In this document: piece after piece, positions 1,394 through 36,765 of the stretch
Layout: every line of letters starts with the position of its first letter
Numbering within the stretch: the first letter of the stretch is position 1
IMG/VR virus record: IMGVR_UViG_3300044675_007236
Reading direction: 5' to 3' (one strand)
Length of the DNA: 64,000 nucleotides
DNA from: a virus
Taxonomy: Duplodnaviria; Caudoviricetes
Notes under the pieces: generated by a model
What the model saw: the letters and a program-made list of their open reading frames with translations, nothing else
What the model was told of the DNA's origin: nothing
Database searches by the model: none
Translations under genes and position numbers: made by a program

Positions 1394-4300
1394 ATGACAT
1401 CCTCCTACGATTTGATTAAAAATGCCAGAATGACCTCTAGCGAGGTCATGGCAGAAGAACAAGCACACGATCCTTACGTTATCAGCGAAACTAAGCTGGT
1501 AAACGTAGCTCGGCAGATGGGCTACAAGCCGTCTGCATCGACAAGCCTTGTGGAACGCAGATTACACTTGGCGGATTTTATGCTGAAATCGTCGGGATAC
1601 CCGACGCTTCAGCCACTTCTTCCGCTACTGCTTTCCATCAGGGGCAAGCCCTATCACTTACATGATCACTTTCCGTTTGCTCCTTTCTTTAGAACGAGAA
1701 TGGCACGGACGACGCTGCTAAAAACGGGCCGTCAAGTGAGTAAAAGTACTTCACTGGCAGCTCAAGGTGTTTTGTTCTCAAACTGCATACCGTACTTCAG
1801 TACGCTTTTTCTTACGCCTTTGTTTGAAATGATCCGGCGGTTTTCTCAAAACTACGTCGCAGAATTCATTACAACAAGCCCTGTAGGCCGACTGTTCACT
1901 GACGAAACTACCGTGAACAACGTACTACAACGTTCGTTTAAGAATAGATCTAAGATGATCTTTTCTTTTGCCTACCTGGACGCCGAGAGAACTCGAGGTA
2001 TCTCTGCCGACAAAAACTGCCTCGTCGGAAATACCATGTTGGAGCTTTCTGACGGTAACTTTGTCGCCATAAAAAATGCTAAACCAGGCATGGCTGTACT
2101 TTCTACGGATAAGAATGGTACAATCAGTACCGATGTAATAACTGAGGTGCTGTATCACGGCGTGCAGCCTGTTTTTGAGGTTAAGTTTTCCGGCGGTGAA
2201 GTTGTACGGTGTACTGCAGATGAGCGATTTAGAACAGCCAGCACAAAACAGTGGAAATATTTGGCAGAGCTTGTACCAGAACTGCTCGAATTCCAAAACG
2301 GACAAGCGAAAGCGGAACCAGGACAAACCTTTAAGCTACCCGCAGAAACAAATGCTACTAGGTTGCTTACTAGGCGATTCCGGAATAGCTCAAGCTTCAA
2401 AAACCTCAAATTACCGAATATATTTCAGACACGGACTGAAACAAAAACAGTACTGTCAGGACAAAGCCGACACTTTGGCCGAGTTTGTTTCAACCCAACC
2501 GAAAGAAGTGCTCAACCGAGGCTACGGAAAAAAGTCGGTAATATTTGCTACTGTTTCAAGTCCTGCGTTTCTGGAAATAGCTCGAACTGTCACCGTCGAA
2601 GGCAAAAAAACGGTAACTACAACTTGGGCAAATCAACTGGATTGGGCGGCAATAGCTTATTGGTACATGGACGACGGAAGCTGCGGTGCTCGAAGAAGCA
2701 ATTGTGTTTTTCATACACAAGGGTTTTCAAAAGCCGAGTGCGAAATACTTTCAAGCCGATTAAAAGAGCTGGGCATCTACAACAAGGTGACGCCTGTAAA
2801 AAACAAAAATCAAGCCAGGCCGTATTACGTGCTTTGTCTAACTGCCGAGAGTTCTCGAAAATTAGCGCTAAATATTGCACCTTGGGTGCATCCGTCTATG
2901 CGTTACAAAATCCCAAGACAAAAAGAAACAGTAATCTGTTCAATGTGTGGATCGATTTTTTCGGGTCGAAAAGACCAGCTGGAGGCAAAAGAAGCTATTT
3001 GCAAAAAAGAAAATTGCAAAAAACTTCGACACAGAAAGTTGAATTTGGAATATCGCGAAAGAAAGAGAGCTGCGAAAGTTCGGTTATAACTTGTGTAACC
3101 TATGTCGGCTTACGTCCAACTTGGGATATAAACACAGCGAAGTATCATTCATTTTTTGCTAACGGTGTAAATTGCCATAACTGTATAGACGAGATCCAGG
3201 ACATGGATATCTCGTTTCTACCTGTTATTCACGAGACTATTTCTGCCTCACGCTCTTGGGGAATCAAGCAATATGCTGGAACTCCCAAGACACTTGACAA
3301 CACAATCGAGCGGCTTTGGATAGATAGTTCCATGGCCGAGTGGATTATCAAATGCCCTCACGGAGGCTGCGGTCACTGGAATATTCCTTCACTAGATCAC
3401 GATCTTCTCAAAATGATCGGACCGGTTCACGACGGCATTAGCGACACGTGTCCAGGTGTTATTTGTGCTAAGTGTGCAAAACCAATCAATCCAAGACCAC
3501 CCTACCAGGGCGGAACTGGACGGTGGTTGCACCGGCATCCCGATAAGCGTTGGAGCTTTGCTGGCTACCATGTGCCTCAGCTTATCATGCCTATGCACTA
3601 CGCTAGCCGCGAGAAGTGGCAAACGCTAGTCGATAAACGAGATGGCAAAGGTAACACACCTATCCACGTTTTTTACAACGAAGTATGCGGCGAGTCGTGG
3701 GACTCAGGTAGCAAGCTTGTAACCATTACAGATCTCAAACGTGCTGCGTGCCTGCCGTGGAAAAATACCATGGAGACAGCTCGAAATAACATCGACGGCT
3801 ATTTGTACCGCTTTGTGGCCGTTGACTGGGGTGGAGGTGGCGTTAGCAACGGTAAAAGCGATCTTGCGTTGCAGTCTTACACTTCGATTGCGGTATGCGG
3901 TCTTTGTCCTGATGGTCGCGTGGACGTTATTTACGGGTACCGAAGTATGACACCGCACGAGCACGAACGCGAAGCCGGTTTGATTTTGAACATCATGGGA
4001 GCTTTCAAGTGTTCTCACGTTGTTCACGATTACACAGGAGCCGGTACAGTGCGAGAAACGCTGCTAGTGCAGGCTAGGCTTCCTCGAGAAAGGATTCTTC
4101 CTGTGGCCTACACTGGGCCTGCCAAGGGTGGTTTGATAGGTTACAAACCTGCAAACCCGAAACACCCTCGAGATCACTATGTAATGGACAGAAATCGAGC
4201 TTTGAATTACTGCTGTCAATTCATCAAAGGTGGGGTTATTAGATTCTTCGAATACGACTACAAAGGATCAGATGATGTCGGTCTTTTGCACGACTTTTTG

Positions 4301-4525
4301 AATTTAATCGAAGACAAAGCCGAGTCTGGATCCGGCAGGGACACTTACAAGATTTTGCGAGATCCTGCCGGACCTGATGACTTTGCACAAGCTGTTACCA
4401 TGGGCTCAATGATGCTGTTCCAAATGGCAGGTAGGTTTCCAGACCTATCAGCCTACAAGGACATAGAGATAAGCGACGATGTGCTACTCTCTACCCAGGG
4501 TATTAAGGACATGGATTGGTACTAG
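1394..4525 (+). CDS. terL: Terminase large subunit (gpA-like), intein-containing
   Basis: Walker A-like LLKTGRQVSKST; Walker B reconstituted after intein removal (GISADKN|CIDEIQD); Cys-rich zinc ribbon CPHGGCGH...CAKC; nuclease motif VAVDWGG. Start moved to ATG 1394 (1430 and 1448 also possible) because 1166-1374 overlaps minus-strand genes. Confidence 0.9.
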   Translation: MTSSYDLIKNARMTSSEVMAEEQAHDPYVISETKLVNVARQMGYKPSASTSLVERRLHLADFMLKSSGYPTLQPLLPLLLSIRGKPYHLHDHFPFAPFFRTRMARTTLLKTGRQVSKSTSLAAQGVLFSNCIPYFSTLFLTPLFEMIRRFSQNYVAEFITTSPVGRLFTDETTVNNVLQRSFKNRSKMIFSFAYLDAERTRGISADKNCLVGNTMLELSDGNFVAIKNAKPGMAVLSTDKNGTISTDVITEVLYHGVQPVFEVKFSGGEVVRCTADERFRTASTKQWKYLAELVPELLEFQNGQAKAEPGQTFKLPAETNATRLLTRRFRNSSSFKNLKLPNIFQTRTETKTVLSGQSRHFGRVCFNPTERSAQPRLRKKVGNICYCFKSCVSGNSSNCHRRRQKNGNYNLGKSTGLGGNSLLVHGRRKLRCSKKQLCFSYTRVFKSRVRNTFKPIKRAGHLQQGDACKKQKSSQAVLRALSNCREFSKISAKYCTLGASVYALQNPKTKRNSNLFNVWIDFFGSKRPAGGKRSYLQKRKLQKTSTQKVEFGISRKKESCESSVITCVTYVGLRPTWDINTAKYHSFFANGVNCHNCIDEIQDMDISFLPVIHETISASRSWGIKQYAGTPKTLDNTIERLWIDSSMAEWIIKCPHGGCGHWNIPSLDHDLLKMIGPVHDGISDTCPGVICAKCAKPINPRPPYQGGTGRWLHRHPDKRWSFAGYHVPQLIMPMHYASREKWQTLVDKRDGKGNTPIHVFYNEVCGESWDSGSKLVTITDLKRAACLPWKNTMETARNNIDGYLYRFVAVDWGGGGVSNGKSDLALQSYTSIAVCGLCPDGRVDVIYGYRSMTPHEHEREAGLILNIMGAFKCSHVVHDYTGAGTVRETLLVQARLPRERILPVAYTGPAKGGLIGYKPANPKHPRDHYVMDRNRALNYCCQFIKGGVIRFFEYDYKGSDDVGLLHDFLNLIEDKAESGSGRDTYKILRDPAGPDDFAQAVTMGSMMLFQMAGRFPDLSAYKDIEISDDVLLSTQGIKDMDWY
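2018..3181 (+). mobile_element. Intein (388 aa) in terminase, inserted just before the Walker B motif
   Basis: Block A CLVGNTMLELSDG at 2018; block B-like VRCTADERF; block F TYVGLRPTWDI; block G FFANGVNCHN followed by Cys+1 at 3182. Confidence 0.9.
2220..3089 (+). CDS. LAGLIDADG homing endonuclease nested out of frame inside the intein
   Basis: Two LAGLIDADG helices (MLLGCLLGDSGI; IAYWYMDDGS), FHTQGFS motif, C-terminal CxxC...CxxxxC. Frame differs from terL. ATG 2220 has GGTG 8 nt upstream; TAA at 3087-3089. Confidence 0.88.
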   Translation: MSDLEQPAQNSGNIWQSLYQNCSNSKTDKRKRNQDKPLSYPQKQMLLGCLLGDSGIAQASKTSNYRIYFRHGLKQKQYCQDKADTLAEFVSTQPKEVLNRGYGKKSVIFATVSSPAFLEIARTVTVEGKKTVTTTWANQLDWAAIAYWYMDDGSCGARRSNCVFHTQGFSKAECEILSSRLKELGIYNKVTPVKNKNQARPYYVLCLTAESSRKLALNIAPWVHPSMRYKIPRQKETVICSMCGSIFSGRKDQLEAKEAICKKENCKKLRHRKLNLEYRERKRAAKVRL

Positions 4526-4540
4526 CTTTACGATTTCTCG

Positions 4541-5044
4541 TTACTCTATTTCAATCCCGTTAGCAGTGACAGTAAGAATCCTACCGTTGGGCAGCAGAAT
4601 TCTATCGTTAGGCTTAGCAACAAGATCAGCGGCTGGCTTTGTTTGCTCCTGCTTGCGTCGGTACCAGATAGCTTCGAGTTGCTCGCCGGTCAACTTTGTC
4701 GATGCAACCCACTTAACACCGTCCCACCACTCGTCGTTGGCTTCTAGAGTCTCGTGCGGATATTTTCCGAGCAGCGTGTAGCCTTTACCCGGCTCAGGCT
4801 TTTTGAGCCACCAGGACTGCGGCTCGTAGACTTGGCATTGAGACCAACACATGCCTCCGTCGCACTTGAAGTGGCCTCGTTCCCATCCAACAAGCATCAG
4901 GTCGTACCCGTCACCGTCGAGGCAGACCCAGTTTTGAGTTTTGTCATCCCTAAATCTAGCCACTTTTCCGTTGTTGGTTCTTACGATCTCCGCAACATCC
5001 ATATCCGTCGCGTCTCTGTAAAACGCTTCAATCTTTGTAGTCAT
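4541..5044 (-). CDS. Hypothetical protein (Trp-rich)
   Basis: ORF; AGGAG upstream of MTTKIEAF. Confidence 0.65.
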   Translation of the reverse strand: MTTKIEAFYRDATDMDVAEIVRTNNGKVARFRDDKTQNWVCLDGDGYDLMLVGWERGHFKCDGGMCWSQCQVYEPQSWWLKKPEPGKGYTLLGKYPHETLEANDEWWDGVKWVASTKLTGEQLEAIWYRRKQEQTKPAADLVAKPNDRILLPNGRILTVTANGIEIE

Positions 5045-22982: not shown

Positions 22983-23576
22983 TTACGCCGATTTGTGTTC
23001 TTGGTCTTTTTCAATCGTCGCTTTGAAGCCGAAGTTTCCAGCAACGTGATAGCAGATGATGCCTTCGGGCCGCATGAATCCGACTCTTGCGTGGCTACCT
23101 CCCATTTGTAGTTCTTTAAGAGCTTCGTACACTCGGGCAGTGTCGAACAAGCCCTGATACAAAATAGGAACCAAACCGCAGCACGAAGGCAACCGCTGTT
23201 GGTACTTCTCAATTCGAGGGTCTGCGGTTGCAATTCGTTTTGGCTCTTGACCAGGTAAACACCACCTTGCCACGTTGAAAAGACTCCATCGCTTTTCTCC
23301 GTTGGTCAAGCCATACCCTCGCTGGATTCCACTGCCCCACCATTCTCCGAAGTGCGTACCAGGGCCTAGTTGCATCAATTCATCGCGGTGGGCCTCGGCC
23401 CACCCTGCGAATCCGAAATTGTCGTCTTGGGGCGTGATCCATCGCGACCGGCTACCGGTCAAAAACTGACCGTCCTCGGTGATGCAGACACAGGCGTTGG
23501 TCCCGTCGATCTTTTCCGTAATGATGCACTCTCGAAACATTCGAGGCATTTTCGGAAACGCTACAAACTCTTTCAT
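22983..23576 (-). CDS. RNA ligase (Rnl2-like adenylyltransferase domain)
   Basis: Motif I ITEKIDGTN; FGEWWG; LFNV; VPILY; PEGII; FKATI. N-terminal FPKMPR typical of Rnl2. Confidence 0.85.
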   Translation of the reverse strand: MKEFVAFPKMPRMFRECIITEKIDGTNACVCITEDGQFLTGSRSRWITPQDDNFGFAGWAEAHRDELMQLGPGTHFGEWWGSGIQRGYGLTNGEKRWSLFNVARWCLPGQEPKRIATADPRIEKYQQRLPSCCGLVPILYQGLFDTARVYEALKELQMGGSHARVGFMRPEGIICYHVAGNFGFKATIEKDQEHKSA

Positions 23577-25757: not shown

Positions 25758-26180
25758 CTACTGCGGAAATAAAACTTCAACAAGTTCTGCGTATTTGCCT
25801 TCAACCTGTCGGGCTGTCGACTTTTCTTCTTGGGATTTTCGAACAACCTTTCGGTCAATCGCAACATCTTTCGGAGCCTGAAAAGCCATTCTCACGACTT
25901 TTGAGCTGCTTGATACCAAGTTGATCACGCTTTGCCCGTAACTGACAGGCTTGTCGTACGTGATATTCCTAGTAAAAGCAGCCTTGCCTAACGGCATAAA
26001 TCTAAACCTAGCAAAACCTTTTTCCGCGGCGAAAACTTGGATTTCGGTTTTACCAATAAAGAAACAACTTTCGTCGCTTGGGTTTTCGATGTTAGCGTCA
26101 ACCTTCACCGCGAAAGACAAGCCTCCAAATTGCTTAGACACTGATATTTTCCTTTCCGAAGTTTTCAAACTTCCACTCAA
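25758..26180 (-). CDS. Hypothetical protein with CsrA-like C-terminal motif
   Basis: VRMAFQAPKDVAIDRKVV resembles the VRxGxxAPxxVxIxRxE motif of CsrA-like folds; weak. Confidence 0.5.
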   Translation of the reverse strand: MSGSLKTSERKISVSKQFGGLSFAVKVDANIENPSDESCFFIGKTEIQVFAAEKGFARFRFMPLGKAAFTRNITYDKPVSYGQSVINLVSSSSKVVRMAFQAPKDVAIDRKVVRKSQEEKSTARQVEGKYAELVEVLFPQ

Positions 26181-30394: not shown

Positions 30395-30678
30395 ATGTCA
30401 AGCTCCTTGAGTAACGCAACAACTTCTTCTTTGGTACGGCTAGAATGATCGTTCCAAACTGAAAGGCTTGCACTGCTTCCAAAACCAAGTTTACGGCAGG
30501 CTTTAGCAAGGTCTTCCGTTAGAGTAGTGCGTGAGCATCGATTCTTTCGATATATCGCACCTATTAAACAAAAGTTAGCTGCAGTTTTGTCGTTAATACT
30601 ACAGCCAACCCCTGTTTCGTCTGTTGCCAGGTTTTCTTGGCACCAGCCGTACTTTTCAAGTAGCTCGAAGGCTTTCAT
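30391..30678 (-). CDS. WCQ/WND-motif paralog C2 (DUF6197-like)
   Basis: Same terminal motifs. Confidence 0.8.
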   Translation of the reverse strand: MKAFELLEKYGWCQENLATDETGVGCSINDKTAANFCLIGAIYRKNRCSRTTLTEDLAKACRKLGFGSSASLSVWNDHSSRTKEEVVALLKELDI

Positions 30679-30679
30679 A

Positions 30680-31198
30680 TCAGTCTCCGTAGATAGGTAA
30701 AAGTAAACTGTCGCTGTCGCGAAGAGTATATTTTTGGCAAATGGCGATAACCCATTTAAAGTCTCGCTTAGAAATTAAAAGCACCTCGCCGCGACCAGTC
30801 ATACCGACAGCTGTCCAGCCTTTGTTAAGGTACAGTCGCAAAGAAGTTTCGTCCGCTTCAGGCCACAAGGCCTGAAAGTAGCTCAAAACAATCTTAGACT
30901 GCACTGGGTCTTCGGTTGAAAACATCATCAGGTACCTAACAGGATTTTTCATATCTTCCCAGTAGGATCCATGAATTGGAATTTTGAAATTTTGAGGCTT
31001 CTCCTGATAGTCAGAATTGAGACGGATCGCTTTTTCCCTTAGCTCGCAGATATCGTTTCGTCGCATTTCGGGATCAAGTGTTTCTACGATCACGTCTACA
31101 AATTTCTTGTAGCGATCTACTGTGCATTTCAAACACGGTAGACCGCTGATTTTGTCGCAACAGTTAGAGCAAAGATTTCTAAAACTAGCGTCGTTCAT
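30680..31198 (-). CDS. Hypothetical protein with N-terminal Cys cluster
   Basis: CSNCCDK...CLKC. Confidence 0.6.
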   Translation of the reverse strand: MNDASFRNLCSNCCDKISGLPCLKCTVDRYKKFVDVIVETLDPEMRRNDICELREKAIRLNSDYQEKPQNFKIPIHGSYWEDMKNPVRYLMMFSTEDPVQSKIVLSYFQALWPEADETSLRLYLNKGWTAVGMTGRGEVLLISKRDFKWVIAICQKYTLRDSDSLLLPIYGD

Positions 31199-31478
31199 TT
31201 CTTTTTTCCCCTTTTATTACCACGTCTTTAGCGACACCAAATCCGCACAGTTTGGCAAACATTTCCTGCCAATCGAAAGCTTTTTCGTTCCACTCTCCGT
31301 CGATTTGTAATGGATGCGGGTTTAGAAGCTCTTCAAAATGGGCAAAAAGGTCGTGTTTGTCCGGTGCTTTCGACTTGCCGACTAGCTCCGCCGCTTTTTC
31401 AAGCGTCATTGTCGTTTTCATTTCTTTTTCCTCCATGGAACTTGAATTTCTGCAACTCTGCGGTTGGCTTCTGCACAT
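31185..31478 (-). CDS. Hypothetical protein
   Basis: ORF; start probably at MKTTM. Confidence 0.5.
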   Translation of the reverse strand: MCRSQPQSCRNSSSMEEKEMKTTMTLEKAAELVGKSKAPDKHDLFAHFEELLNPHPLQIDGEWNEKAFDWQEMFAKLCGFGVAKDVVIKGEKRNERR

Positions 31479-31645
31479 TGTTTGTCGATACCGTCAAGCT
31501 CGGCAATAAGCCTTTCAGCAATATCGCCAAAATAAATTCGTATAAGCCTTTTGAGAATCTGGCGATCTCCGTGAGGCCAAACCAGACCGGCCTGCTTTAA
31601 GCTGTTTATGACAGCTTCGAGAACGATTGAATCTGTACTTTCCAT
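31418..31645 (-). CDS. Hypothetical protein
   Basis: 75-aa ORF. Confidence 0.55.
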   Translation of the reverse strand: MESTDSIVLEAVINSLKQAGLVWPHGDRQILKRLIRIYFGDIAERLIAELDGIDKQCAEANRRVAEIQVPWRKKK

Positions 31646-31646
31646 G

Positions 31647-32201
31647 TCATTTGCTTTCTAAGTATTGATAGGCGGGACTAAGCTCGCGATCGTTCCAGTA
31701 GGTACCTACGATCATGCGATGCTGATCAACTGGTGTTTCGACTTTTATCGAAAGACCAGCTGCAATTTTTTCTTCAACAGCTGCGTTAAGTTTTTCAGAA
31801 CGCAAACGGTATGAATCCCAACAAAAGCGGCGATAGTCCTCTAGGGGTAGAGATCCAGCATAAACTGCTGTTATCGATTTACAGTTACGGGCAACCCTTT
31901 TGACAACCAAATGCGTCCAGTCAGCGGGAGGTATTTCGTCTACGAAAACGATAATACCAATTGGTTTTCGAAGCCGATTCCAGACAGTCGCTTCAAATAG
32001 CCAGTTGGAGATAAATTCCAATCTAACCATGTAGTTTCCCTTGTCCGTTTGGACAAAAGGAACTTCGGCAACACAAATACCTTCGGTCGTGTGAACGGCA
32101 AAATCCCGCCACAGGCAGGTGCCAGGCTTTAACCTGGACACCAGCTCTTCTAAGTTTTGTAGTTTTTCCACGTTATTTCTTTGGGTCCATGAAAATGACA
32201 A
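31647..32201 (-). CDS. Hypothetical protein
   Basis: 184-aa ORF. Confidence 0.65.
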   Translation of the reverse strand: MSFSWTQRNNVEKLQNLEELVSRLKPGTCLWRDFAVHTTEGICVAEVPFVQTDKGNYMVRLEFISNWLFEATVWNRLRKPIGIIVFVDEIPPADWTHLVVKRVARNCKSITAVYAGSLPLEDYRRFCWDSYRLRSEKLNAAVEEKIAAGLSIKVETPVDQHRMIVGTYWNDRELSPAYQYLESK

Positions 32202-32550
32202 TGAAAAAAACTTCTAGTGACATGCGGGATTCAAACTTTGCAACCCACTCAAGCTCCTCGGCTGACAAAGTTTCCTTTGTCTTATTGAGGATAGTAATCT
32301 CGCTGTCTTTAAGTTCTCGAAGTTTGCGATCCAGAATCTTGTTCATCGATCTGCGAAAGACAGGGCCTGGTTCGCCTCTCTGAATAACAAATCCCAACCA
32401 GAAAGCGTCCTGAAACGCGTGCACTGTGTTAGTGACGAGCTTTTCGTTGCGAACTTCTTTAACCGGTGCTCCCGGCTTGTCCTGGACCTGCATCGCAGAA
32501 AGCGTGAAAAGACTAGACAAAGTAAACAGAATCAAAATGATCGTACGCAT
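32173..32550 (-). CDS. Secreted or membrane hypothetical protein
   Basis: MRTIILILFTLSSLFTLSA signal-like N-terminus; AAGGA SD. Confidence 0.6.
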   Translation of the reverse strand: MRTIILILFTLSSLFTLSAMQVQDKPGAPVKEVRNEKLVTNTVHAFQDAFWLGFVIQRGEPGPVFRRSMNKILDRKLRELKDSEITILNKTKETLSAEELEWVAKFESRMSLEVFFIVIFMDPKK

Positions 32551-32579
32551 GATTTTTCCTTGTGAATGTAAATTAAAGA

Positions 32580-33367
32580 TTACCGCAGCATTCACTGAAT
32601 GCGGTAAGCTTGTGTCCTCTGCATTTGCCAGGGCTTGGAACCTGCCTCACCGTGAGGGCTGCATTACACGCCGCAACTCTGCAAAGATCCTCACTGATCT
32701 TTACGCTTGCGGCAGGTCGGTCATGTAACTTGACCGGTGGTATAGAGTGAGCTATGCATTTTTCTACCTGTATGCTCAGGCTCTTAGCGTAGAAGTACGG
32801 GCAAGTTTCCGCTCTGCCTAGCGATCCGTTCTTCCACGGATTATTACTGGCCCCTTCGCGGTAGCTTTGCGTCGGACTCTCTCCGCGTGACTTGTCGTTA
32901 CTGATCAAGTCCACTGCTGACGTTTTTTAGTGTCGTCAGTACCACGTTACCTTTGGTTTAGCGAGAAGGTATTTCTCGGAACGTTTACTGCTTTTTAGCT
33001 CCGCCTTGAGATTGTTATAGACAACGCAAGACGCCAACATAAAAGCCCACAGAAATTTAGGGCTAGTTGTCGGAACAGTTTTCACTTTCTGGGGAATGCC
33101 CTTTCGGACTTTAGTTCAACCCCGAAACCGTGCCACGTGTACCTTTACACGCCACACAGTAATGCTTTACAAGACCCATAAAGAGAAGATCTTGGTAAGG
33201 ACGACACAAGTGCTAGCCGCCCGCAAATATCGCAAAGACAAAAGACGCTGTTACCCTCAGCTTGATTTTTACATCAAGCGAGTGCGGCCTTTGCGATACT
33301 CGACTTAAGCCAGTGAAAATACGTTTGCTTTTGTATTTCGACCGACTTGCAAACGATAAGTCGTCTG
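32580..33367 (-). ncRNA. Large highly structured ncRNA candidate (about 790 nt, GOLLD/ROOL size class)
   Basis: No credible ORF; more than 15 hairpins or long-range stems, e.g. TATCGCAAAG/CTTTGCGATA, GCTTGAT/ATCAAGC, CGTGTA/TACACG, CTGACG/CGTCAG, GACTTG/CAAGTC, ATCCGT/ACGGAT, GCCGCAA/TTGCGGC, AAAGATC/GATCTTT; terminal TTACCGCA/TGCGGTAA plus T-rich tract. Confidence 0.7.
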
Positions 33368-33404
33368 CATATTATTATGACTCGTTTTTAACGAAAATTA
33401 AGCA

Positions 33405-33701
33405 CTAAAAAGTATACTCTACAACCTTACCATTTTGGGCTACTCTCAGTCTAACCTTATCAGCACTAAGCATTTCTTTAAGTCGCTTCTTTTTCTCCAC
33501 ACCCATGTTGATGATAGATTGCTTGATCGTCTGCATGGTCTGCACACGTCTGGCTGCTGCCTTGTTACAAGGTTTACAACTTTTCTTCGCAACCGGTGCG
33601 GCACCGCTTGCGAGGAACGGAAACTCTCGTACGAAGTTAGGATTTGTAGCGAGCGTGAGCAACACCGTATCTTCAAGTGTAAGTAGCTTGTGTGTAGCCA
33701 T
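33405..33701 (-). CDS. Small basic protein with CKPC motif
   Basis: 98-aa ORF, TAATG coupling. Confidence 0.65.
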   Translation of the reverse strand: MATHKLLTLEDTVLLTLATNPNFVREFPFLASGAAPVAKKSCKPCNKAAARRVQTMQTIKQSIINMGVEKKKRLKEMLSADKVRLRVAQNGKVVEYTF

Positions 33702-34138
33702 TAGTTTGAGCTCGAGGTAGATGTGTCAGGAGCATCCGGTATCCAAACGACTTGTGTTGTTTTCAGTGTATCTAGACGGTTCATTGCTTTGATCAAAATT
33801 TCGACTTCGTGCTTGATCTCATCCCATATGGCCTGTGCCTGGGCCGACGAGGCAACGTCTAGCTCGACATAACTAAGACGGTAGTACGGCCAACCTTGAT
33901 CTGGGTCCGGGGCACCAGCAGGATAGTCGGCTAACTGGGGAGGTCCAGCTACCGCTTCAAATACGTCTGTACTTAGATCGGTGTACGGGCTAGGTGTGTT
34001 GTGTCTGTAGATAAAAACATTTCCGTCTATATCGTTGCCCTCGAAGTCTGTGACATCTATACGTAAACGATAAGCACCGTAGTTTGGAAAAACAACAGTG
34101 CCTGTTTCTGCTTTTGTAAGTTGTATTCGTCTAGCCAT
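33701..34138 (-). CDS. Hypothetical protein, possibly virion
   Basis: 145-aa ORF; GAGG SD. Confidence 0.65.
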   Translation of the reverse strand: MARRIQLTKAETGTVVFPNYGAYRLRIDVTDFEGNDIDGNVFIYRHNTPSPYTDLSTDVFEAVAGPPQLADYPAGAPDPDQGWPYYRLSYVELDVASSAQAQAIWDEIKHEVEILIKAMNRLDTLKTTQVVWIPDAPDTSTSSSN

Positions 34139-34153
34139 TGCCTCAGCCTCGGT

Positions 34154-34768
34154 TTAGATATCGAGCAACGATTTCATTATCTCTAGTTTTGGTTTTTTTG
34201 CAATATTGCAGGCTTGCGACGTACAGTGAATTAGTTGGTCGTACACCGGGTATTCTGCCACTGTAAATTTTTTGGTAAACGCAATAAGCCCAGTCGCCAG
34301 CATAATCATATCGGAAGTGTGGGGTCTATCGTGGATTTGAATAAAGTGCTCATACTGTGCGGCTAAGTTACAGAATTCGCGACAAACTCGCAGGTAGTTT
34401 TCTGCGGAGCCTGACACGGTGCAAGGTACGTGACCGCAGTGGACGACGAGTTCCGAGGATTCAAAAGCATCTGATTGTGTCAGCCCGGTGTTCACGACAT
34501 CATAGTCTATCATGACCCCACCTCCAATTTCAGCCATTGCCAACCATCGCATATAGCAATGATAGTCGTACTTGCCTGGATTTACAGTTGGTAGCCTGGA
34601 GACAGTATCGACATATTGTTGGTAGAAAGTAGATCTTCTTGCAACAGCTTCGCCTATAACTTCTAATTGCCAACCATTACGCTCCCAAGATTGGCGACAA
34701 ACTTCTATTTGGTCTGGTTGGCCTGTAAGTTGGCTTACAGGTTCGTAGTAGGTAAAAACACGTTTCAT
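34154..34768 (-). CDS. Putative GT-A glycosyltransferase-like protein
   Basis: CRQSWERNGW...CYMRWLAM...GGVMIDYDV (DxD). Confidence 0.55.
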   Translation of the reverse strand: MKRVFTYYEPVSQLTGQPDQIEVCRQSWERNGWQLEVIGEAVARRSTFYQQYVDTVSRLPTVNPGKYDYHCYMRWLAMAEIGGGVMIDYDVVNTGLTQSDAFESSELVVHCGHVPCTVSGSAENYLRVCREFCNLAAQYEHFIQIHDRPHTSDMIMLATGLIAFTKKFTVAEYPVYDQLIHCTSQACNIAKKPKLEIMKSLLDI

Positions 34769-34770
34769 AG

Positions 34771-36765
34771 CTATCTCTTAATCTGTGATATATCGAAGTC
34801 AGGATCCCACGGAAAACGCTGGCTTGCTCCGCGTCTACCGCCTTGTTCTCGAGAAGGACAAGCTATCAAACTTTTATTCTTGTTCCATTGTTTTATACCA
34901 AAACCGGCTTGGTGTACTTGTTCGCCAATTGTGATGTCTCCGCCGTTGTGTAGTAGCCTACAGTCAGGCACATCGGCCTGTCGCATAGCCTCCGTTTCCA
35001 GAGCCCAGCACCAGCCTACAGCAAAGTCGATCACAGAACCATTGGAAACTTCTTCTTTCCCCGTCTTTGTACGTAAGTGCTTGCCCTTATGCCACATAGC
35101 ATCCTTAAACCACTTGTCAGGACGATGCCCTGCCCCCGCATAAACGCTGAGATCGTGATACATAATATTACCATAAAGCCTAAATCCGCTTTTATGATTA
35201 GCTACTATTGTTGTACAAAGATCTCCCAACCAAGCGGGGTTAGCTACCCAAGTGTCATCGTCAAACCACATTAAATACTTAGTAGTAATAGGATGAGATT
35301 CGTCATAAAACATTTGACGCATTACGGGATACTTGAAGTCGTTAGTATCGTGCTTGTATATCTTAGTAACTGGCACTGTCTTTAGATAATCGAGTGTAGC
35401 TTTCGGTACTTGGTTTGTAGCAACTCTAAGATCTAATTGGTCGTTCGGTACTGTTCTAAGTATTCCGTTTATACATCTTGTAGCGAGCTGCGTATGCTGT
35501 CCGTAGCAAAGTACAAAAACTGTAATCTTTCCGCCTAGTATCGGATCGCTTAAACCTGGTACAGCCTTAAATATACTTCCAACTTGATTTGCTTTTAGTT
35601 CTAACGGATGAACTTTTTGATGTGTTTTTTGTGTTACATTAGGTCTAGATGGTTCTCTAACCATTTTTACATCGTGCGGCTTATGCTCTACGAGCTCTAC
35701 CGCAGGTATCACAATGTTATGTCTTACCTCTTCCTGTGCGGTAGTAGGTTGCAACACTCCAGATTGATAGTAAGACATGACCGCGGCTACAACTTCGTCA
35801 GAACTAAGCATATCGTGACAGCCTGCTACCGCGTGCGTAGTCGCGGGCTTAACTGGTTTCTGACATAGCAGATGTATTTTGCGACTGCGATCAGTCGGAT
35901 CAAGCGGCACTACTCTATTTTTCCAGCAACCGTAGCTCTCGCAGCACGGTAGCTTTCCAACGGTGTGCAAGTACTTGTGCGGTATAGTTACTGCTTCTGC
36001 GTTAGCTCCGAACGCCTGATACTCGTCAGTGTAAGCTTCAAACCAAGGTTCTTCTCTACCGCCCGCGTACACCACGCACGGTTTATCGAATGCGGCTGCG
36101 ATATGCATAGCACCTGTAATCCCGCATATAACGCCGTCGGAGTGCAGTATTATGTTCCACAGGTCTCTTACATTATCTGTCTGACCTACAAGGTTAAGCG
36201 TACGCTCGAGCGGCGGGTGTATATGATTGGTTTGAGTAGCACCAACCTGAACGCAATGTATGTTATCGTTTAACAGTTTATCTACGACTTCTTGCATGCG
36301 GTGAGAATGCCAGTGTTTAACAGTAGCGTCTAACTTACCGCCTGATACCACAACCCAATATCTACCTGTCAGCCTTCTAACCCTTTCATCGTCTGACAGG
36401 TGTAAGTCAGCTTTAGGTTTTGTCACGGGTACTTTTATACCGGTTTTGACTTCGAAATCATGATGGTACCAAGCCAGTATATGTCTTTTGTTGCCCTGTG
36501 AATCGATACCGTGCTGTTTAATTGCTTTACCCCAATCAAGGGTGACTAGCTTGGCTTTTGACCTTTGGCTTTCAGAAAACTTTACAACATACGGATTGTT
36601 CCACCATACGTTAGTAAAGTTGGTACTAACCTCAGTCTCGTACTTGCCCGGATAGGCCGCATGCAGATCACGTATAAGTGCCGTAAAAAGAACAGTGTCG
36701 CCCAGAGCGTGCGGGTGACCGTGCCTAACTATTAGTGGAATTTTGCCTTGCATTTTGCCTTGCAT
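34771..36765 (-). CDS. Two-domain glycosyltransferase: GT9 (heptosyltransferase-like) plus GT2-like
   Basis: LGDTVLFTALIRDL..AYP and DGVICGITGAMHIAAAFDKPCVV (GT9); ITVFVLCYG...YLMWFDDD (GT-A). Confidence 0.8.
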   Translation of the reverse strand: MQGKMQGKIPLIVRHGHPHALGDTVLFTALIRDLHAAYPGKYETEVSTNFTNVWWNNPYVVKFSESQRSKAKLVTLDWGKAIKQHGIDSQGNKRHILAWYHHDFEVKTGIKVPVTKPKADLHLSDDERVRRLTGRYWVVVSGGKLDATVKHWHSHRMQEVVDKLLNDNIHCVQVGATQTNHIHPPLERTLNLVGQTDNVRDLWNIILHSDGVICGITGAMHIAAAFDKPCVVYAGGREEPWFEAYTDEYQAFGANAEAVTIPHKYLHTVGKLPCCESYGCWKNRVVPLDPTDRSRKIHLLCQKPVKPATTHAVAGCHDMLSSDEVVAAVMSYYQSGVLQPTTAQEEVRHNIVIPAVELVEHKPHDVKMVREPSRPNVTQKTHQKVHPLELKANQVGSIFKAVPGLSDPILGGKITVFVLCYGQHTQLATRCINGILRTVPNDQLDLRVATNQVPKATLDYLKTVPVTKIYKHDTNDFKYPVMRQMFYDESHPITTKYLMWFDDDTWVANPAWLGDLCTTIVANHKSGFRLYGNIMYHDLSVYAGAGHRPDKWFKDAMWHKGKHLRTKTGKEEVSNGSVIDFAVGWCWALETEAMRQADVPDCRLLHNGGDITIGEQVHQAGFGIKQWNKNKSLIACPSREQGGRRGASQRFPWDPDFDISQIKR

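Follow-up and report, generated by a model that had tools for sequence, protein, structure and literature searches.

The roles of self-cleaving ribozymes in bacteria and phages are largely elusive, and a part in the processing of polycistronic transcripts has been suggested (PMC6765202). In tailed phages, theta ribozymes have been proposed to trim the 3′ trailers of tRNAs (Kienbeck et al. 2024, PMC10879173), and 493 non-tRNA minimal HDV-like matches were reported in non-coding phage DNA with no role assigned (PMC10879173). Structured RNAs and several ribozyme classes also recur in the same phage-like neighbourhoods, as described for the RAGATH motifs (Weinberg et al. 2015/2017, PMC5737381; PMC6765202). 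The locus described here shares with the theta ribozymes a small ribozyme of a tailed phage, placed with its predicted cut site directly at the 3′ end of a structured RNA that it would release, and the P4-less HDV-like modules of its relatives are of the same kind. It differs from them in that the RNA is a non-coding RNA (ncRNA) of 0.43-0.95 kb and not a tRNA, in that the phages come from lake water and not from the gut, and in that a twister stands in place of the HDV-like ribozyme in the phage under study. Unlike in the RAGATH neighbourhoods, two classes are found here at the identical position of one orthologous RNA, which would point to a concrete role.

GOLLD, first seen in lake metagenomes, and ROOL are large ornate RNAs of phages and prophages, of unknown function (PMC12286853). 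The RNA described here resembles GOLLD (RF01998) and ROOL (RF03087) in its length of several hundred nt, its many conserved helices, its lack of an ORF and its being encoded by a phage (PMC12286853). It differs from both in having no sequence or structure match to them at E ≤ 10. We know of no report of ribozyme-made ends for GOLLD or ROOL. In R2 retrotransposons, the message is excised from its co-transcript with 28S rRNA by an HDV-like ribozyme. As in R2 (see PMC11331408 for its context), a ribozyme at a junction would here part an abundant upstream structural RNA from a message and stay on the 5′ end of the latter; R2 is a eukaryotic retrotransposon and its upstream RNA is host rRNA, whereas here the element is a phage and the upstream RNA a phage ncRNA. 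In the literature searched, the coverage of which is incomplete, we found no description of a twister at the end of a large ncRNA, nor of a large ncRNA with ribozyme-made ends or of an exchange between twister and HDV-like ribozymes at one locus.

The locus, its relatives and its flanking elements

The DNA analysed is a stretch of 64,000 nt (hereafter the window) from an IMG/VR virus record (175 kb, 84% complete) that represents an uncultured lake phage, which is myovirus-like and encodes a Baseplate_J protein, a collagen-like fibre and a GT9 glycosyltransferase. All genes around the RNA locus lie on the minus strand, on which an 853-nt gap (32551-33404) separates the stop of a 98-aa gene at 33405 (33405-33701, minus strand) from the start of a 125-aa ORF, with its ATG at 32550 (32173-32550, minus strand), directly downstream. 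The first-pass annotation had put the locus at the boundary between two gene blocks, and the RNA indeed sits where the virion block ends. A tRNA gene lies 5 kb away on the same strand.

The small neighbouring genes have no match in Pfam or PHROGs. The protein encoded directly upstream of the RNA locus is basic, with one CxxC, and belongs to a family for which a profile search gives 577 representative clusters (50% identity), with E ≤ 1e-10 for 147 of these. We considered it as an RNA-binding partner; no Pfam or PHROG match was found for it, and its AlphaFold2 model is moderate (pLDDT 68.8), with no fold match in the PDB. In all contigs inspected, the gene of this large uncharacterised family closes the fibre/glycosyltransferase block. 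No relatives of the 125-aa protein were found, and the related contigs carry other, unrelated genes in its place. BLAST of the gap and the surrounding 14 kb against 50,697 phage records returned nothing useful and tblastn of the baseplate protein gave no match, thus no cultured relative was found. Scans with 20-mers in metagenome and genome collections yielded only two chance matches, on unrelated GC-rich contigs.

A search with the 98-aa protein recovered three IMG/VR contigs and then further lake, ENA and Logan contigs, with proteins 55-100% identical; three more pattern scans of IMG/VR returned the same three contigs and nothing else. In all relatives, the gene order is GT9, ~205 aa, ~147 aa and 98 aa, followed by a large gap, which in the RNA-bearing relatives measures 0.9-1.1 kb and has an alignable sequence. 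The orthologous RNA is present in at least seven related lake-phage contigs (L003/L004/L005/L011/L013/L015/L017/L024), always after the 98-aa gene. Between the window and L003/L004, the 5′ half of the RNA is ~93% identical, a value higher than expected from the 90% amino-acid identity of the adjoining protein; the 3′ half is more divergent, with many indels. When bounded in every lineage by a point ~6 nt past the -10-like box described below and by the predicted ribozyme cut, the mature RNA measures 703 nt in the window (33368 to 32666), 736 nt in L003, 737 nt in L004, 713 nt in L011, 799 nt in L013, 946 nt in L015 and 426 nt in L017. Contig L026 carries a more distant member of the 98-aa family in the same synteny, without the large RNA, and our models of the RNA (R1, R2 and R3) have no match in the distant loci L026-L028, which indicates that the large RNA is limited to a narrow clade, though the locus type is wider.

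A promoter-like element (CTTAATTT ... AAAAACGAGTCATAAT) occupies positions 33374-33402 on the minus strand, beginning two bases past the 98-aa stop codon. Its -10-like CATAAT at 33379-33374, which had been picked out as promoter-like from the sequence of the window, is kept in the relatives. The motif is present in all of them as ..CGTGTCATTAT.., ~5 nt ahead of the RNA's first hairpin, and has the general form CTTAATTT...AAAAACG(T/A)GTCAT(T/A)AT, followed ~5 nt later by GCAGA...ACUUA. With its leader, it occurs once in the 175-kb record; L017 has two copies and L026 three, each ahead of a separate unit, and in L026-L028 the motif recurs before protein-coding as well as non-coding units. A generic sigma-70 scan misses the element. 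Judged from its conservation, the element would be a promoter, and transcription of the large RNA would then start ~6 nt past the -10-like box, at the predicted 5′ end of the mature RNA.

In L017, the first of the two motifs precedes a short hairpin-plus-terminator unit of ~70-120 nt (L017:3326-3475). In L027, the motif is followed by ~800 nt without a called gene (L027:3590-4450), a region that contains, besides a GCGAAAGCTACC stretch resembling the core of the window's RNA, a tRNA of 34.4 bits at 4296-4375 and, near 3865, a T-arm-like GGTTCGAATCC hairpin. Positions 2804-5303 of L026 form a 2.5-kb ncRNA island with the promoter-plus-leader motif at 2826, 3475 and 4283; in it, a tRNA (2925-2997) is followed by a strong hairpin and two twisters (3036-3094 and 4927-4990), and small ORFs lie in between. 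We also observed a unit of ~30 nt, made of a 5-bp hairpin with a GAGC loop able to pair with GCUC just past a GUUAAAAGG spacer, in at least eight copies in L026 (3415-4935 and 5285-5303), in a single copy directly after the HDV-like ribozyme of L011 (L011:4100-4130), in L004 near 5706, and in the window's own genome near 54622 on the minus strand, outside the window.

At the other end of the locus, the first-pass annotation had proposed a terminator-like 3′ hairpin. It is present at 32580-32607 with a U-rich tail at 32570-32579 (together 32570-32607, minus strand), ahead of the leader and ribosome binding site (RBS) of the downstream gene, and it is kept in the relatives.

Folding and covariation of the large RNA

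The gap folds on the minus strand with a minimum free energy (MFE) of -291.8 kcal/mol, compared with -247.5 ± 7.0 for dinucleotide shuffles (z = -6.4); the plus strand gives z = -5.0, and the mature RNA of ~703 nt (32666-33368, minus strand) z = -8.0. With covariation and the absence of a conserved ORF, these values bear out the proposal, made from the letters of the window, of a large hairpin-dense non-coding region. The longest sense-strand open stretches shared in the relatives are of 46-56 codons or fewer, and the 113-aa ORF at 32573-32914, the coding alternative named with that proposal, is not conserved, the indels of the relatives not being multiples of three.

Pairing was scored as the fraction of alignment cells that form a pair, compared with that obtained with slid partners. 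The long-range 10-bp helix that had been placed at 33227-33236 and 33289-33298 exists, with its first arm shifted by one base to 33228-33237, and belongs to a longer helix of 17 pairs, in which pairing across the relatives is 98%. In a covariance-model alignment, nt 21-170 of the RNA pair in 98.0% of cells versus 35-43% with slid partners, with 15 compensatory pairs; none of these measures is attained by a single one of 500 shuffles. Likewise, nt 335-480 pair in 98.7% of cells versus 30-46%, with 5 compensatory pairs. As an out-of-sample test over the whole length, a structure derived from four close sequences was applied to the distant L013 and L015 in a plain MAFFT alignment: 57.8% of cells pair, versus 38-43% when slid, and 46 cells are doubly changed. 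The most conserved part is a core block of 68 nt (32805-32872, minus strand) with three short hairpins and conserved loops, common even to the 426-nt version of L017; its model R2 scores 72.3 bits in the window, 79.8 in L013 and 57.8 in L017. Note that RNAalifold favours a three-way junction for the core, whereas a reading by hand favours three independent hairpins, of which one shows a compensatory change.

Size and phage location had suggested to the first-pass annotation a member of the GOLLD or ROOL class. This assignment did not hold. At the Rfam gathering thresholds the gap has no match, and when a 1.15-kb region was searched by cmscan with relaxed filters, listing every match up to E = 10, only three chance-level small-RNA matches appeared besides a type-P1 twister; the models of GOLLD, ROOL, tmRNA, group I and II introns, RNase P RNA and OLE all gave no match at E ≤ 10. 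GOLLD (RF01998) and ROOL (RF03087) have no match at E ≤ 1 in five relatives, and the RAGATH families have none in the region or the window. Overall, the RNA falls outside the catalogued families and represents a new one, of large structured RNAs that are expressed and come from freshwater phages.

Ribozyme modules at the 3′ boundary

The first-pass annotation had noted neither the twister in the 3′ part of the gap nor the HDV-like ribozyme that takes its place in the relatives. The twister (32611-32670, minus strand) lies between the folded RNA and the terminator-like hairpin, and since the 3′ part of the gap is a twister, the mature RNA would end ~100 nt before that hairpin. The match scores E = 1.5e-11 for the region and 8.3e-10 when the whole 64-kb window is compared with all 4227 Rfam families, a search in which no other ribozyme was found at E ≤ 0.05, and it is the single occurrence in the 175-kb record. 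The described type-P1 twister (RF03160; Roth et al. 2014, as cited in PMC5737381) is matched in the type-P1 order of its helices P1-P2-P3-P4, both pseudoknots, the core letters and a cut site of U followed by AA; departures from it are the score (55.8 bits, below the gathering score of 67.2), a P1 of 3 pairs, a very short P3, the U-A pair in T1 and CAAA for UAAA.

In the cmscan alignment, P1 has 3 bp, P2 4 bp, P3, which is optional in this type, 5 bp and P4 3 bp. With the letters that form the pseudoknots T1 and T2 assigned after the published structures, T1 (UCC with GGA) and T2 (GC with GC) are 100% paired in all three sequences, that is the window and two copies in L026. T1 consists of U-A/C-G/C-G against three C-G pairs in the consensus, the change of the loop from CCC to UCC being offset by that of GGG to GGA. 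Of the core letters, UAA, GCC, GGU.CCAAGCCC, AAA and GAGG are present. Two departures occur, CAAA for UAAA and GAGGA for GAGGG, the second of which is offset inside T1; the CCAAGCCC loop and the A directly 3′ of the scissile bond are retained. Cleavage is predicted between U32666 and A32665, leaving only five ribozyme nucleotides with the upstream product; it would give 2′,3′-cyclic phosphate and 5′-OH ends. A pseudoknot-free MFE calculation does not reproduce the twister fold, as expected, and is uninformative.

The twister sequence is identical in every contig of the window's lineage, i.e. those with the window's exact 98-aa protein. Outside it, L026 carries two very similar matches, of 61.2 and 45.5 bits; with the window, these show pairing in 90.5% of cells versus 31-48% when slid, and 5 compensatory pairs, in P1, P3 and P4. 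Positions 32540-32672 of the window have a homologous counterpart in L026, a cassette made up of twister, hairpin, CAUUCACA, RBS and ATG, which suggests that the window's twister cassette was probably gained by recombination with such a unit.

In all relatives outside the window's lineage, an HDV-like module takes the place of the 60-nt twister; it is already present in the next lineage, whose 98-aa protein is 89% identical. The module is minimal and P4-less in five lineages and possesses P4 in the most distant one, L017, where it weakly matches RF02682 (HDV-F-prausnitzii; E = 0.41, with 25.9 bits where the gathering score is 44). The P4-less copies have no Rfam match at E ≤ 10, as expected because the HDV-type model includes P4. 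Among the six distinct sequences, the counted cells of P1, P3 and P1.1 are 100% paired versus 27-64% when slid, the G1.U wobble is invariant, and compensatory changes occur in P1 (G-C to A-U in L013) and in P1.1 (U-A to C-G in L011 and L013). P2 has 5-9 bp, with a wholly different sequence in L017. Each copy has a C-N-(A/G)-A run (CUAA, CCAA or CCGA) before the 3′ strand of P2, the place expected of the catalytic C, the register of J4/2 not being fixable by sequence without P4. In L017, at least 260 nt of hairpin-rich non-coding sequence follow the HDV-like ribozyme up to the contig end (L017:3976-4237). A descriptor scan of the 175-kb record for HDV-like ribozymes elsewhere returned 9 matches against ~3 per shuffled strand, which we discarded as chance level.

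Both flanks of the swapped module are homologous: upstream lies the closing hairpin of the RNA, followed in all lineages by 3-5 unpaired bases before the cut site, and downstream the terminator-like hairpin, kept 3′ of both the twister and the HDV-like modules, and the leader. The occurrence of an unrelated ribozyme at the same place in an orthologous RNA indicates that the precise self-made 3′ end matters, and not the class of the ribozyme. Two unrelated classes at one position are the strongest argument that the predicted cut would be the selected function.

Expression and competing explanations

Lake-water metagenomes contain the stretch that includes the locus, with six small lake metatranscriptomes covering 75-82% of its sequence words. 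Four metatranscriptomes were mapped to 30500-35500 as assembled contigs, which do not give exact ends, strand or level. In each of the four libraries we observed one discrete contig of 651-666 nt, from 32695/32706 to 33355/33360, which supports expression of the RNA proposed from the sequence. Its k-mer depth is 9.7-16.8, 3-5 times that of the neighbouring genes, which are patchily covered at 2-5. The glycosyltransferase genes (34174-35500) have essentially zero coverage, which argues against DNA carry-over. No contig crosses the cut-site region (32649-32694) in the four libraries. One contig (32425-32648) starts 17 nt past the predicted cut and runs through the terminator-like hairpin into the downstream gene, indicating that termination is incomplete. 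Likewise, no contig crosses 33361-33489, between the upstream gene and the RNA, and the depth falls from 10-17 in the RNA to 0-3 in the upstream gene. The contigs end inside the predicted RNA by 8-13 nt at the 5′ side and 29-40 nt at the 3′ side, which fits, though does not prove, thin coverage at the ends of the molecule with 31-mers. A circular RNA was considered and set aside: the contigs show neither loose ends nor back-joints, and we found no ribozyme at the 5′ side.

We regard it as likely that the locus encodes a separately promoted RNA of ~703 nt (33368 to 32666) with a 3′ end that results from ribozyme cleavage in cis, the same cut freeing the downstream mRNA. The gap would then be a transcription unit of its own, driven by the conserved promoter-like element just past the 98-aa gene and comprising, in this order, the ~700-nt multi-domain structured RNA, the twister, the terminator-like hairpin and the leader of the next gene. 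Self-cleavage of the twister at U32666/A32665 would free the large RNA as a discrete species, ending with its closing hairpin, a 5-nt tail and a 2′,3′-cyclic phosphate, and nearly the whole ribozyme would remain on the 5′-hydroxyl end of the downstream transcript; the cut would uncouple a stable, abundant ncRNA from the downstream message. As to what the mature RNA does, our guess is that it acts in trans, as a structural, scaffold or decoy RNA comparable to GOLLD/ROOL, rather than as an antisense or cis regulator. The RNA is much more widely conserved than the variable genes downstream of it, a point in favour of a role in trans; no antisense target, protein partner or known motif was found for it.

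The twister, hairpin and leader of L026 follow a tRNA or pseudoknot arrays, from which it could be argued that the ribozyme serves mainly the downstream message. The gap would in that case, which is the main alternative, be a long structured 5′ leader, the ribozyme providing the message with a 5′-hydroxyl, ribozyme-capped end and the 700 nt being a by-product or a cis regulator. Such a leader is in keeping with the homologous cassette of L026, which precedes a gene and follows a tRNA rather than the large RNA, with the conservation of the hairpin and leader in the HDV-bearing relatives too, and with the one contig that spans from just past the cut site into the gene. We nevertheless hold it to be unlikely, as conservation is highest in the upstream RNA, the downstream genes being unrelated among the relatives, as the upstream fragment reaches 3-5 times the depth of the gene in the four RNA libraries, and as covariation of the helices extends over 700 nt, a constraint not needed in a by-product. 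A second alternative is to see the gap as the structured 3′ UTR of the fibre/glycosyltransferase/98-aa operon, co-transcribed with it and trimmed by the ribozyme, without a promoter of its own. Here one can point to the common strand, to the mere 36 nt from the stop codon to the RNA's first hairpin, to the strict synteny with the 98-aa gene and to the failure to call a sigma-70-type promoter. The conserved motif before each RNA unit, duplicated in L017, L026 and L027 and in some cases far from 98-aa genes, is at odds with it, as are the lack of a contig bridging 33361-33489 and the drop in depth from 10-17 to 0-3 in the upstream gene, and we judge this explanation very improbable.

The cmscan results bear on the idea of a divergent GOLLD, ROOL or other catalogued large RNA (OLE, group I/II intron, RNase P): with only the twister-P1 and three chance-level matches up to E = 10, and likewise in the relatives, we give it hardly any credit, despite the size, the phage origin, the lake habitat, the many helices and the tRNA gene 5 kb off on the same strand. 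Finally, the diverged, indel-rich 3′ half, and signs of a recombination hot spot in the differing downstream genes and the swapped ribozyme, might be read as a decaying gene or a recombination scar without function, whose stable folding is incidental. Compensatory changes, a conservation above that of the neighbouring coding DNA, a high and specific expression, and the retention of two independent ribozyme classes at one and the same boundary make this the least credible of the explanations considered.

A protein with an RNA ligase domain (PF09414, E = 4.9e-13) is encoded at 22983-23576 on the minus strand, 9 kb downstream on the same strand, and its gene directly follows a 570-nt gene-free stretch; the cyclic-phosphate and 5′-OH ends of the ribozyme products make a link to RNA repair conceivable. 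Separately, a 140-aa ORF at 25758-26180 (minus strand) has a weak CsrA-like match (PF02599) that stays below threshold (19 bits, the cut-off being 27; E = 0.0012), possibly a mimic of an RNA-binding regulator, or a chance match.

One orthologous RNA associated with two ribozyme classes amounts to a natural swap experiment. The swap says that selection keeps the cut itself, the purpose of which would be the 3′ end of the ncRNA together with the freed downstream message, and the defined ends make the RNA a ready candidate for cleavage assays, cryo-EM and end-specific RNA-seq. More speculatively, and with a chance that we put well short of even, the orphan ribozymes of phages may be interchangeable end-makers for ncRNA genes: in this phage group, islands of ncRNAs (the large RNA, tRNAs and pseudoknot arrays) under a dedicated promoter would be cut into units by twister or HDV-like ribozymes, and the 700-nt RNA would represent a new ornate class acting in trans that needs an exact 3′ end with a cyclic phosphate. 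If this is true, such an end might serve the assembly of the RNA into a higher-order particle or feed the RNA-repair enzymes of the phage.
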